A DNA stretch of 64,000 bases, taken from IMG/VR virus record IMGVR_UViG_3300031912_000006, one strand, 5' to 3'. The notes beneath the pieces were generated by a model, which was not told the DNA's origin, searched no databases, and saw only the letters and a program-made list of their open reading frames with translations. Numbering within the stretch: position 1 is the first letter of the stretch; each line of letters starts with the position of its first letter. Origin of the DNA: an uncultured virus (IMG/VR IMGVR_UViG_3300031912_000006). Taxonomy: Duplodnaviria; Heunggongvirae; Uroviricota; Caudoviricetes. Made by a program: the position numbers and the translations under genes. Positions 42,780 to 52,246 of the stretch are shown one piece after another.

Positions 42780-42844
42780 ACCCTTCGCCCGCCATGGGTT
42801 ACGTTAACGCCAGGTTACTTTACGCCTAATCGCGCCGTTTCGGG

Positions 42845-48034: not shown

Positions 48035-50304
48035 ATCTCCTTCACTAGTATGTTGGTGCCGAAACCGTCGCGCTTTCGGCCTTTTACGATGAGCACGTCT
48101 TTGCCGTTTGTCCGTAGTGTCTCCAATCTATCGGCAAATCTGTTGAAGTCAAAGCGATTAATGCGGCAGTGAACGTCCTCATCACCATCGTCTATACACT
48201 TGACCACACACAGTTTCGTTAGCTCCGGTTCATCTATCTCAGCCAGTATCTCTTCTGTCGTCTTGTCGGTCCTGGCGCGCTCGTCTTCCACGATGTCCTT
48301 GTATTCCTTCGCTACCGGAATACCAACCCACACAACATCAAACGAGCCATCCATGGCCAGGTCATCGCTCGTGTGCGTAGGGTCAGGGATACCAGGGAAA
48401 CTGCCGGCTGCTATATCCCCACGAATCTCCTCAAGAATGCGATGAATCCTGTTGATGCCGAACGGGTCTGGGTCAGCCGCGAACAGCTTAATGCGCTCAA
48501 TAGTCTTGGGTCCAATCCCCTTGACCTTAATGAGGTCGTCCCAAGTAGGCGCGGTTTCCCAGTGCGTCGATTCCAGGTAATCCACAATAGCTCGTGCGTA
48601 TTTGGGCCCAATTCCCTTGATCTGTAAGAAACCCGCGCACACAGTACGCTTGTCGGTTCGTGTCCAGCTGACTTGAGAGTCCACAATGTCAGGTGGTACC
48701 ACTTTAATCCCGTGCCGCATAGCATCTTTGATGAGCTTTGTTCGCTTGTACTCATCGTCAGCTTTCCTTAGACGAGCCGCGTAGAACGCAGCCGGGTGGT
48801 GCTGCTTGAACCACTGACACCACCATGCGATGATCGCGTAGCCGGTGGAGTGCGCGGTAACGAACGTGTAGGTGGCGCTCGTAACCATGAATCGCCATAT
48901 GCGCAAGGCTAACTGGGCGTCTATACCGTGAAGCTCCAGCGCACCCTTCTCAAATCGGTCATAGAAACTGCCGAACTGCGCCTCACCTAGCTTCTGCGAG
49001 ATGATGTAACGTATCTCGTGGACACGGTCAAGTGGAAACCCGCCAACCTCTTTGATGATCCTGAGGATTTGCTCTTGGAAGATGATCTGGCCGCGTGTCT
49101 GGCGGGTTTCCTGAGTTACGATGGGGTGCAATCGTTTTGGCTGTGCGCGTCCGTGCTTGACGTCGCAGTAGTCGCCAGTTGTGCCAGAGAACAATGGGCC
49201 TGGTCTCGACAGCGAGTTGATATCAACCAGTTCTTGGAACGTATCAGGCCGCACGTCACGGCACACGAGTCTTGTTGCGCGGCCTTCAAATTGGAAGATA
49301 CCAATTACATCACTCCTATGGAAAGCCTTCATTGTCTTGCGGTCGTCTAGCGGGATACGGTACACATCCTCCAACGACATACCGACCATTTCGGCCGCAG
49401 TACCGAGCACGTTCATGGTGCTAAGGCCCAAGATGTCGAGCTTCAAGAAGCCCATGTACTTTGAGTCCTTCTTGTCGTACGCTATGACGGAAGTCTCAAC
49501 ACCCGCAGTTGTTTTCGTGTACGAAGCGCAAGCGTCAGTGATGGGCGTATTCGAGATGACGAGACCAGCCGCGTGGACGCCCATACCACGGTAATTACCT
49601 TCCAATCGGACGGCATTGGCAATTGTCGGATACGCATCCAAAACCTCTTGGGCTCTTGGGAATACGGCAAACGTATCCTCAAGAGAATTGCCCTCCCGCG
49701 AGTCTCCACCACCACGTTCAATGATAAGACGCTTGACTTTGTCTGCCTCCCAACTTGGGATGTGATAGACTCGTGCGACATCGTCTATGCTGTTCTTTCC
49801 CTTGTATCTCATGAAGTTTGCGACTTTACCCGTTTTATCTGCGCCGTAACGACTTGCCGCGTAGTCGAAGACTTCTTGTCTACGCTCATCATCAAAGTCC
49901 AAGTCGATGTCGGGCAAATCGTTTCGGCTTGGGTCGATGAACCTTTCAAAAAGCAGACGGTCAAATACCACGGGATCAATCTCCGTGATACGGAGAAGAT
50001 AGCATACGACGCTAGCAGACGCTGACCCACGTCCAGGTCCAACCGCAATACCATGGTCCTTAGCCCACCTGACAATGTCGCTCGTGACCAGGAAGTAGTC
50101 AACGAAACCTTTGCCAATGATAAGCTCCAACTCCGCTTCCACTCTGTCGATGTATAGCTGGGGTCGGTTGAGCATACTTTCGTTTTGCGTGATGTCAAGG
50201 CGATAATCCCATCCACAATTTAGCCAGTGCCGCAACAGCTTTACTGCCTCATCAGACGGTTTAAGATTGATCGCGTACGTAGTGAGATCAGGTTTTACGA
50301 CCAC
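48013..50304 (-). CDS. dnaE: DnaE-like DNA polymerase III alpha, catalytic part
   Basis: GPGRGS, FERF, PDIDLD, HAAG, KLDILGL, GIFQFE. Confidence 0.95.
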   Translation of the reverse strand: MVVKPDLTTYAINLKPSDEAVKLLRHWLNCGWDYRLDITQNESMLNRPQLYIDRVEAELELIIGKGFVDYFLVTSDIVRWAKDHGIAVGPGRGSASASVVCYLLRITEIDPVVFDRLLFERFIDPSRNDLPDIDLDFDDERRQEVFDYAASRYGADKTGKVANFMRYKGKNSIDDVARVYHIPSWEADKVKRLIIERGGGDSREGNSLEDTFAVFPRAQEVLDAYPTIANAVRLEGNYRGMGVHAAGLVISNTPITDACASYTKTTAGVETSVIAYDKKDSKYMGFLKLDILGLSTMNVLGTAAEMVGMSLEDVYRIPLDDRKTMKAFHRSDVIGIFQFEGRATRLVCRDVRPDTFQELVDINSLSRPGPLFSGTTGDYCDVKHGRAQPKRLHPIVTQETRQTRGQIIFQEQILRIIKEVGGFPLDRVHEIRYIISQKLGEAQFGSFYDRFEKGALELHGIDAQLALRIWRFMVTSATYTFVTAHSTGYAIIAWWCQWFKQHHPAAFYAARLRKADDEYKRTKLIKDAMRHGIKVVPPDIVDSQVSWTRTDKRTVCAGFLQIKGIGPKYARAIVDYLESTHWETAPTWDDLIKVKGIGPKTIERIKLFAADPDPFGINRIHRILEEIRGDIAAGSFPGIPDPTHTSDDLAMDGSFDVVWVGIPVAKEYKDIVEDERARTDKTTEEILAEIDEPELTKLCVVKCIDDGDEDVHCRINRFDFNRFADRLETLRTNGKDVLIVKGRKRDGFGTNILVKEMWGLCLD

Positions 50305-51236
50305 GGTAGCCAGTCCTTCCCCTCAATTGGATACCGCAGCGGTTCTACCTTTGCGAGCTTCACGTCACAACGATCAGCTATCACCCCGGTGTTCGAGAGT
50401 GCTTGTAACGCACCATCTTCCGTTAACCCCGTGCCCAAAAGGTCTTGGTACACGCGCTCGTCGCTCTCTGGTATGTCTAGTGTTACGTTGTACTCCCAAG
50501 CCGCTTCTGTGGCGGATACGCTAGAACCACGGTGAGCCGCATGAAGAACCTTCTGCATCTCGTTGTCTCTAGCATAGACATAATGACAGTCGCTCGTCGC
50601 AGCAAGTTGTGCTCCGGTGTCTCTGGAAATGCGCTCGTAGGCCTGATTGATCTTACAAGTTCGACGCAGCGCAGGAAAGCGCTGAGTTTCAAGGTAGTAC
50701 CTGTCGCCAAATACCTCTTGGTACCATTCCACGACCCCAAGGGCACGCCGATATTGCTCTGGGTCGAATCTGAATCCTGGTGCACCGTAAGACTTTCCAC
50801 CAAAGAGCGTGCAGGCAAGCACCGAATCAGAACATCCAGAGAGTACAATGAGTCCGTCACTAAACTCCTCAAGCATCTCAACGTGAATCGTCGGAAACCG
50901 TGTCTTGCTGGTTCTCCCAATGGTTTTCCACGACTCAACGACTAACTTGTTCAGGTTTGAATAACCAGCCTGCGTCATGGCTAGGATGGTCTGATGGCAC
51001 TTCCTGCGCTCGTTGGGCGGGGCAACGTAACCCTCAAGGCCGAACAGCGGTTTGATGCCAAACTTGGTACACGCCTTCTCAAGCTGTACATGGCTCGACA
51101 CGTTACCTCAACCATGTTCCGTCAACGCCATAGCTTTCATACCAAGCGTTGCACAACGCTCAACATGTTCTTCAGGCAAACCATAACCATCTCCATATGA
51201 AAAAGTCGAATGGTGGTGTAACGAAACATAATCCAT
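50295..51236 (-). CDS. dnaE: DnaE PHP domain gene with an in-frame UGA at codon 43 (51108-51110)
   Basis: GGAGGTGA SD and ATG 51236 give MDYVSLHHHSTFSYGDG...ALTEHG*GNVSSHVQ..., continuing in frame to 50295 with the later PHP motif ATSDCHY. Confidence 0.85.
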
Positions 51237-51241
51237 TTATA

Positions 51242-51691
51242 TCACCTCCCACGATGATAACGGCGGGTGTTATCGCCTGGTGTTATTTCTTCTAAGTGAT
51301 CTGTGTTCCAACAATTTTTACGTTCACACATATGATCAACTGTCATGCCTCGCGTTAAAGTTTCGCCATCTAAGATTAACGCTAACCTGTGTATTCGCAC
51401 AAATTTACCGTGATACCAAATCTGTTGATACTTATGAATTTTGTCTATACCATCATATAGCCAACACGGAGTATCAAAATTTGGATGTTTAACGACATCC
51501 GTTCTAGCCCAAAGCCTATCAAGTACAGGCTGTTCCTTTCGCCCAGCACGCTCCTTATAGACACATACCCTATCTGAATGAGCAACTACTTGCCCATCGC
51601 CAGTGCGGTAGTCTACTGCAGATTCATAATCTGAAAGTATTGGCTCGCAATAGATTCCGGTGTTTATCGGAGCTTTACTCACGTTCGTCAT
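51242..51691 (-). mobile_element. HNH homing endonuclease gene
   Basis: CWLY...IHRL...VDHMCERKNCWNTDHL..ITPGDN; core about 36% GC by hand count. Confidence 0.85.
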
Positions 51692-51703: not shown

Positions 51704-52246
51704 CTAGTCCCTTTTAGCCTGTTTAGGATCGAGTAGGGCTAATAAAAGGTGACCAATTAAGTCCATCATGATCTCTGGAACCTGCTCTCCCACAAGAGGT
51801 TTGCCATCCCACAACGCCTTCTTCAGCTTACCAACCTTGCGCCACAGGTCAACAAATTGACCTTTAGCACCTAGTTTGAACTCATCGAAGTCGTCACCGT
51901 AATCCTTGTTCTTATTGAGGAATAGCTCCAACACCTTTGGCAATACGCAGAGTAGAATGCGCTCTGATTGTACCGTTGGTGGGTTAGCAATTTCAATCGT
52001 GATCAGGCCCAAGCTATGGTTGATGTTATCCGGCTCACCCCAAGCGCGCACACGAATCTCGTGTAATGGCAATGGATTTGGCTCAACCTCCATGGGCACT
52101 CCTGGGTTGGCATTCATCACTTCGCTCATGACTTCAGCGGTAGGTCGTAACCCAGCTTGATCGCGTATTACGTCTGCTTGCGATGTGCTTGGATAGCCGG
52201 GGTAACCGCGCTCTTCAAGTTTCTTCGCCATGTAATCATCAGTCAT
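51704..52246 (-). CDS. Nucleotide-modification-associated (Nmad1/DUF1599-like) protein
   Basis: KNKDYGD...G...DLWRKV.KL motif. Confidence 0.7.
   Translation of the reverse strand: MTDDYMAKKLEERGYPGYPSTSQADVIRDQAGLRPTAEVMSEVMNANPGVPMEVEPNPLPLHEIRVRAWGEPDNINHSLGLITIEIANPPTVQSERILLCVLPKVLELFLNKNKDYGDDFDEFKLGAKGQFVDLWRKVGKLKKALWDGKPLVGEQVPEIMMDLIGHLLLALLDPKQAKRD

Follow-up and report, generated by a model that had tools for sequence, protein, structure and literature searches.

Programmed translational bypassing is represented in bacteria by one well-studied example, gene 60 of phage T4 and its homologues. In the mobA/gene 60 pair, as one account summarizes it (10.1101/2022.08.31.505936), an HNH enzyme spreads to naive genomes along with a 50-nucleotide (nt) insert, by which the carrier is protected from the enzyme. 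Several other described systems share some of these features. In the synthetic stop-hops constructed in Escherichia coli by Weiss et al. 1987, as cited in PMC5009743, 9 nt encode one residue, and +5 and +6 events figure in the title of the paper. The byps of Magnusiomyces capitatus mitochondria are short mobile inserts in essential genes that are corrected by translation, according to the passages devoted to them in two publications (10.1101/2022.08.31.505936; PMC5009743). MobE in nrdA of phage Aeh1 is described as a free-standing homing endonuclease whose target gene is in two pieces (10.1101/2022.08.31.505936). In the passages on hopping of the review by Atkins et al. 2016 (PMC5009743), no natural in-frame stop-hop is given as known, and shorter relatives of gene 60 are said to have been long expected. 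Here we describe a six-base, stop-led insertion in the PHP-domain gene of the DnaE-type polymerase encoded in a 64,000-nt stretch of DNA from an uncultured virus of the class Caudoviricetes (IMG/VR IMGVR_UViG_3300031912_000006; this whole stretch is hereinafter the window). It belongs to a recurrent class of endonuclease-linked micro-insertions in actinobacteriophage DnaE genes, of which there are at least six forms, including some in plaque-forming phages.

The DnaE-type polymerase of the window is encoded by two minus-strand genes, one for the PHP domain and a separate one for the core (the coordinates are collected in Table 1). The PHP domain is recognized in a profile search (Pfam PF02811, E 1.3e-17), and its HxH and T(D/E)HG motifs lie inside an open reading frame (ORF) of 42 codons that ends with GGT and is closed by TGA; a second GGT and AAC-GTG follow, and after these the PHP frame is open for 268 more codons, with the gene callers placing the start of this 268-amino-acid (aa) ORF at the GTG (51101). 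An earlier note on this DNA had reported the sequence, the strong Shine-Dalgarno (SD) element, the ATG, the GGT-TGA-GGT unit and the frame open to 50295, and all of these are found at the coordinates given there. It had also claimed that dropping six bases restores TEHGN, and comparison with homologues bears this out, showing a true insertion relative to every relative examined. The T(E/D)HGN motif is present without a gap in gp82 of Mycobacterium phage Onyinye and in seven IMG/VR relatives, to the closest of which (L006) the remainder of the PHP protein is 85% identical; the motif is visible in 110 of the 127 collected proteins, and the residue after HG is N in 109 of these and H in one. Homologues with two residues between HG and N were sought and none was found among the 110, so that a naturally longer loop struck by a simple nonsense mutation is excluded. 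Since GGT is repeated, the exact placement of the six bases is ambiguous.

The likeness to T4 mobA/gene 60 is closer than the earlier note, which had pointed to it, could tell: the interrupted gene is immediately preceded by an HNH gene, and the insertion sits at the edge of a low-GC tract. As in T4, the insertion is located a few dozen codons into the gene (codon 42 in the window, codon 46 in T4), in a highly conserved metal-binding region, and a glycine take-off codon is followed at once by a stop and by a matching glycine landing codon that adjoins the resume codon. As in T4, too, the cassette is patchy among related phages, and the endonuclease family is swappable while the insertion stays (an HNH protein of phrog_826 in the window, phrog_4160 in L032, a viral contig described below). 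There are also differences. The proposed hop of +6 spans a gap of 3 nt rather than 50 nt; the window has no significant take-off stem-loop and no known nascent-peptide signal; the host gene encodes the PHP domain of an actinobacteriophage DnaE, not a myovirus topoisomerase; the endonuclease gene stands between genes instead of splitting its target; there is no sequence homology to the T4 element; and bypass and immunity are, for the window, proposals by analogy. The locus would represent a minimal form of bypassing, with nine bases per glycine, in a T4-like setting that combines an HNH neighbour and a conserved metal-binding motif.

With respect to the other systems, the +6 event of the synthetic stop-hops is the size of the window insertion and the +5 event that of the insertions in phages Aikoy and Leopard (see below), although those were engineered constructs, unlike the window. 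The byps resemble the window in being short inserts, with translational correction being, in the window, a proposal; they differ, as described (10.1101/2022.08.31.505936; PMC5009743), in that they measure 27-55 nt, are mitochondrial, have an unused sense codon in the A site and lack a link to an endonuclease. As in MobE/nrdA, an endonuclease is tied here to an interrupted, conserved gene of replication or nucleotide metabolism whose pieces could reassemble; there, however, the endonuclease gene lies between the two pieces, both with added tails, whereas the window has a 6-nt break 130 nt downstream of the endonuclease gene. Our literature searches, including a term search of PMC10732093 and with subscription journals outside their coverage, turned up no description of this arrangement, and the class of DnaE micro-insertions is apparently undescribed.

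The insertion exists as real DNA, since exactly these bases recur in the nearest virus record, in three IMG/VR contigs from other metagenomes (0-1 difference over 5,804 nt) and in one JGI contig, and positions 51071-51500 are covered without a difference by Logan unitig-level contigs in three of four further soil runs, the fourth (X22) having yielded no contig for this interval. In the protein collection, the 42-aa ORF was found on 36 contigs, and the 268-aa ORF starting at the same GTG occurs in no fewer than five protein haplotypes, including mosaic ones, while an uninterrupted allele (TDHGNVSSH) is found in a background that is identical at 268 of 270 positions (99%). Given the identity across assemblies and runs, the several haplotypes and the intact allele alongside, the interrupted allele is established in the soil phage population, has recombined into several backgrounds and coexists with the intact one. 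At positions 50964-51024, run X6 contains, in addition to the main form, short variant contigs that are shifted by 1 nt and have 1-5 differences, and in several runs the contigs are interrupted near 50970; co-occurring strains whose mosaic boundary lies about 30 codons downstream of the insertion would account for this, and haplotype P0137 also points that way.

The best explanation of these observations is that the six bases are part of a mobile cassette of a homing endonuclease, made up of the HNH gene, the foreign low-GC stretch of 42 codons and the stop-led micro-insertion. The HNH gene is inserted between the homologue of Onyinye gp81 and the PHP gene, directly upstream of the latter; in profile searches it matches phrog_826 (E 2.3e-16) and five further HNH PHROGs, and reaches 19.3 bits against Pfam HNH_3, under the curated cutoff of 24.8. 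The GC content of the tract is 0.36-0.43, against 0.50-0.56 in both flanks, and the right edge of the tract lies at the insertion. An endonuclease gene adjoins the interrupted gene and, L006 (see below) excepted, is missing from uninterrupted close relatives, and a foreign tract ends at the insertion. Most likely, to judge from T4, the insertion breaks the recognition site of the neighbouring HNH enzyme, and the carrier genome would therefore be immune to its own enzyme, as proposed by analogy with mobA/gene 60.

Cultured phages provide natural controls for this scheme. The nearest named relatives of the window are the Mycobacterium phages Onyinye, Aikoy and Leopard (genus Onyinyevirus), with about 75% nucleotide identity in the core gene; their genes are annotated as DnaE-like, and their DnaE, too, is divided between a PHP gene and a core gene. 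In Onyinye, gp81 and the PHP gene are direct neighbours, and the latter is uninterrupted. In Aikoy, the slot between these two genes is occupied by an HNH gene of phrog_826 and the PHP gene reads TCC TAT TGA AC GGC, with a 5-nt insertion after Tyr14. In Leopard, the slot holds a phrog_4160 gene, homologous to that of L032 (41% identity over 71 aa, E 1e-20), and the PHP gene reads TCT TAG CC ACT, with a 5-nt insertion after Ser10. On the 5' side of the insertion, 10 of the 14 codons in Aikoy and 7 of the 10 in Leopard differ from those of Onyinye, all of them synonymously, and on the 3' side the sequences of the three phages are identical. The Gordonia phages of Lambovirus repeat this picture at yet another site: Xenia2, Ranch, Erutan and Patos, which come from four US states, have an HNH gene about 50% identical to that of Aikoy directly upstream of a fused DnaE gene that, in each of these four HNH carriers examined, contains the 9-nt in-frame insertion TAG GTG GCC after Ser13, and all three HNH-free phages examined, Lambo, Zany and Genamy16, are uninterrupted. 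The recoded codons end at the insertion in Aikoy, Leopard and Ranch. Altogether, seven carriers were isolated on laboratory strains of Mycobacterium smegmatis or Gordonia, namely Aikoy, Leopard and five Lambovirus phages, four of which were checked. As each cultured carrier group has an endonuclease-free sister phage, the decoding and immunity hypotheses are directly testable.

In the GenBank records of Aikoy gp83, Leopard gp82 and the DnaE of Ranch, Erutan and Patos (L080, L081 and L084-L086), the starts are annotated downstream or out of frame, and an N-terminal ORF of 10-14 codons that carries the HxH motif is left unannotated, so that the interruption is hidden in these records. Even without any hop, the cassette explains the shortened annotated starts of these DnaE genes and shows a way in which homing endonucleases invade invariant coding motifs.

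The search for other carriers, which the earlier note had called for, found the same site interrupted in two quite different phages, represented by the contigs L032 and L108, both of which came from degenerate pattern scans of IMG/VR. In L032, which encodes a fused, full-length DnaE, the same TGA-led six-base insertion is present with GGC as the landing codon; an extra gene upstream belongs to another family, phrog_4160, and two relatives of this phage (L075 and L076) are without the insertion. In L108, also with a fused DnaE, GGT is followed by TGA, four more bases and AAC, a 7-nt insertion that changes the frame, and the HNH protein encoded upstream is homologous to that of the window (37% identity over 99 aa, E 1e-20). 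Three further lineages, seen as called proteins, have 42-aa ORFs ending in TEHG; the partner of one of these, P0016, begins MVEGNVSSH, consistent with a 7-nt version that starts with the same bases. Statements on P0016 and on P0010, P0052, P0094, P0107, P0123, P0124 and P0126 are inferred from the N-termini of called proteins, not from DNA; two of these, P0052 and P0094, have odd N-termini at the same site.

As for the yield of the scans, 5 of the 31 matches of the viral pattern scan were true; a scan of IMG/VR for TEHG-x-GN gave five matches, of which four were true and the fifth a chance one, and in PHP genes x was always TGA. The scan of genome contigs gave at least 120 matches; among the 144 matches listed for the viral and genome scans jointly, five had a PHP context, all on viral contigs. 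A metagenome scan for MALTEHG followed by a stop returned 21 loci, with a PHP gene only in L073, which is the window's own clone. A further viral pattern scan gave no new carrier, and searches for related loci with the window HNH and with P0052 gave nothing new. A suspected fragment ORF in Microbacterium phages was rejected, as the FreddieHg genes merely overlap.

Comparison of the six interrupted cassette types (window, L032, L108, Aikoy, Leopard and Lambovirus) brings out a common design. An extra gene lies directly upstream in all six, against 3 of 13 uninterrupted lineages (Fisher p 0.003; 1 of 13, p 0.0003, if only HNH-like genes are counted), the lineages not being fully independent. In every type, the codon of a native residue (Gly42, Tyr14, Ser10 or Ser13) is intact and a stop follows at once; the inserts are 5, 6, 7 or 9 nt long, regardless of reading frame; the variants differ in length, site and codons, and deleting the insertion restores the invariant family sequence in all six. 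Were decoding irrelevant, an in-frame stop would open an insertion with a chance of 3/64 per event, and neither a second lesion nor a lost start or SD element was seen in either part of the gene in any of the six types. The take-off and landing triplets are GGT and GGT in the window, GGT and GGC in L032, GGT and AGC in L108, TAT and AAC in Aikoy, TCT and GCC in Leopard, and TCC and GCC in Lambovirus; that is, the triplet on the 5' side of the resume codon is cognate in the window and L032 and matches at positions 2 and 3 in the other four. With six cases and after the fact, we noticed that five take-off codons end in U and five landing triplets in C; the T-ending fractions in the same genes are 0.52, 0.22 and 4/13 for GGY in the window, L032 and L108, respectively, and, in Aikoy, 0.07 for TAY and 0.40 for TCY.

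At the protein level, the best single explanation, which we consider nearly, although not quite, probable, is that a +6 stop-hop makes the insertion invisible in the window. Under this mechanism, peptidyl-tRNA-Gly would sit on GGU (51113-51111) with the slowly decoded UGA in the A site, and the tRNA would unpair and re-pair on the next GGU (51107-51105), with decoding resuming at AAC; nine bases would yield one glycine, and the normal TEHGNVSSH protein would be made, with the junction ...ALTEHGNVSSHVQLEK. The window has two of the parts that such bypassing calls for, a take-off codon followed by a stop and a landing codon that is read by the same tRNA and adjoins the resume codon. Judging from the sequences, hopping is the only single decoding that would give the wild-type protein in all six cassette types. 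The generalization is a shade more doubtful, but it is possible that actinobacteriophage DnaE genes host endonuclease cassettes that protect themselves by 5-9 nt stop-led insertions in an invariant PHP motif, decoded by +5, +6, +7 and +9 hops. If true, these would be the first natural stop-hops and, next to the T4 gene 60 bypass, a second and far simpler system of independent origin; plaque-forming carriers can already be found in culture collections.

Several observations weigh against a hop. Early hops over a slow codon and later synthetic long-distance cases are described as non-programmed and hence of low efficiency (10.1101/2022.08.31.505936). The landing match covers two of three positions in four of the six types, which is partly automatic if the insertion falls within a codon. 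The carriers of the window allele are all near-clonal, which precludes a measure of selection after the insertion. A real exception to the association is L006: in this closest uninterrupted relative (85% aa identity), two HNH-like ORFs of 117 and 142 aa (L006:1589-2370) precede an intact PHP gene at the same place, so that the intergenic site is a hotspot of endonuclease genes not every one of which brings an insertion. The hairpin that the earlier note had drawn around the site can be drawn but is no stabler than dinucleotide shuffles (z 0.20 and z -0.16) and is not conserved in other carriers of the same insertion; the window has no significant stem-loop of the bypass type, in which the 5' arm would hold the take-off codon, and a mononucleotide-shuffle scan of six loci gave z values from +0.65 to -2.5. 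Of the earlier interpretation, then, the true insertion, the restored TEHGN and the T4 gene 60 parallel are supported, and the hairpin is not. Furthermore, the insertion creates a GAGG 4 nt before an in-frame GTG that lies two codons past the stop, as in a stop-restart design, and in Lambovirus a GTG follows the TAG directly. Finally, PHP is a separate subunit in the lineage of the window. PHP is the proofreader of mycobacterial DnaE1, and since it is a separate subunit here, its loss might be survivable.

Two alternatives we consider unlikely, and about equally so. The first is termination at the TGA followed by re-initiation at GTG 51101 with the aid of the GAGG, so that the 42-aa peptide and the 268-aa protein would form a two-piece PHP domain, for which MobE/nrdA offers a model. 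The gene callers take the GTG start in every carrier, the DnaE of this lineage is already split into PHP and core, and P0016 starts as expected from an ATG overlapping the stop. The product would, however, lack Gly43 and Asn44, the Asn being present in 109 of 110 homologues. Moreover, a start codon within two codons past the stop exists only in the window and Lambovirus, two of the six types: the first in-frame start comes 10 codons on in Aikoy, 14 in Leopard and, as TTG, 19 in L032, and there is none within 60 codons in L108, so that restart in these four would come late and delete conserved metal ligands, and the N-terminal pieces of Aikoy and Leopard would be just 14 and 10 residues long.

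Under the second alternative, the insertion is a selfish scar: the cassette homes, and the insertion knocks out or cripples the separate, proofreading-type PHP subunit, which is tolerated with no special decoding. Homing cassettes can spread though mildly harmful, as discussed for MobA (10.1101/2022.08.31.505936); PHP and core are separate genes in the window; the insertions look recent, the nearest relatives being without them; and the uninterrupted allele coexists in the 99%-identical background. Against this, all six types start with an in-frame stop after an intact native codon, at the chance given above for each, none has acquired a second lesion or lost a start or SD element, in L032, L108 and Lambovirus it is the gene for the entire fused polymerase that is interrupted, and the Aikoy, Leopard and Lambovirus carriers are plaque-forming isolates.

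Distinctly improbable, in our view, is readthrough of the UGA by a near-cognate tRNA, which would add two residues (TEHG-x-G-NVSSH). The insertion is indeed in frame in the window, in L032 and, with TAG, in Lambovirus, but extra residues at this site occur in none of the 110 homologues, x is only TGA in the PHP genes found by the TEHG-x-GN scan of IMG/VR, the out-of-frame 5- and 7-nt cassettes would not be served, and the window contains no tRNA gene. A sequencing or assembly artefact, the assembly error that the earlier note had allowed for, is hardly credible given the same sequence in independent assemblies and in the contigs of three of four runs, as well as analogous insertions in phages that were isolated and sequenced separately.

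The matching codons around the stop are more than a product of chance. In-frame stops with at least 40 open codons on each side number 51 in the window, and two of these have identical flanking codons. The second, CGT TAA CGT (42804-42806, minus strand), with 44 open codons before and 944 after it, was rejected as a hop site, being intergenic, in the spacer between a 163-aa ORF and a 936-aa primase/helicase-like gene. General recoding in the window was likewise rejected, as this other matched-flank stop is intergenic and no tRNA gene was found within the window.

Table 1. Features of the interrupted PHP locus and its surroundings in the window.
Feature	Position	Strand	Remark
Conserved gene, homologue of Onyinye gp81 (phrog_10271, function unknown)	51704..52246	-	Borders the inserted cassette on its left
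HNH endonuclease gene, 149 aa, free-standing	51242..51691	-	phrog_826 profile match
Low-GC tract	51120..51540	.	Spans the greater part of the HNH gene plus the first 42 codons of the PHP gene
Shine-Dalgarno element GGAGGTGA of the 42-codon ORF	51242..51249	-	
First 42 codons of the PHP gene (HxH, YGDG, TEHG), ORF intact	51111..51236	-	ATG at 51236, last codon GGT 51113-51111
GGT TGA GGT, nine-base unit: proposed take-off, stop and landing codon	51105..51113	-	Six of the bases are the insertion
TGA, then GGT, then AAC	51110-51108, 51107-51105, 51104-51102	-	
GTG (Val45), in frame	51099..51101	-	Two codons (GGT, AAC) past the stop; preceded by GAGG
Remainder of the PHP gene, from resume codon AAC to the stop (50295-50297)	50295..51104	-	Pfam PHP, similarity to L006
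DnaE polymerase core gene, 763 aa	48013..50304	-	Separate ORF, different frame

Some further features of these loci deserve mention. In four cassette types (window 51241-51250, L032, L108 and L083/L084), the TGA of the endonuclease gene sits inside the SD element (GGAGGTGAT) of the N-terminal ORF, and this junction is common to both endonuclease families, phrog_826 and phrog_4160. In L008 and L009, an ORF that resembles staphylococcal nuclease, by a motif judgement made by eye, occupies the same slot, and the PHP gene is intact. In L032 (L032:2985-3035, minus strand) and L108 (L108:1490-1540), the insertion can pair with the upstream Phe/Val-Ala-Leu-Thr codons in a 12-bp hairpin (z -3.1) and in a stem of about 10-11 bp (z -1.9), respectively, with a geometry unlike that of the T4 gene 60 take-off stem; these hairpins include G-U pairs, which are mismatches on the other strand, and the extra base in L108 lengthens the stem and breaks the frame, the window being without an equivalent hairpin. 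The arrangement of the polymerase genes varies as well: in the window, the PHP and core genes overlap by 10 nt (50295-50304, minus strand) in different frames; in Onyinye, Aikoy and Leopard, a gene of 92-94 aa and unknown function lies between them; and in L032, L108 and Lambovirus, they form one fused gene.

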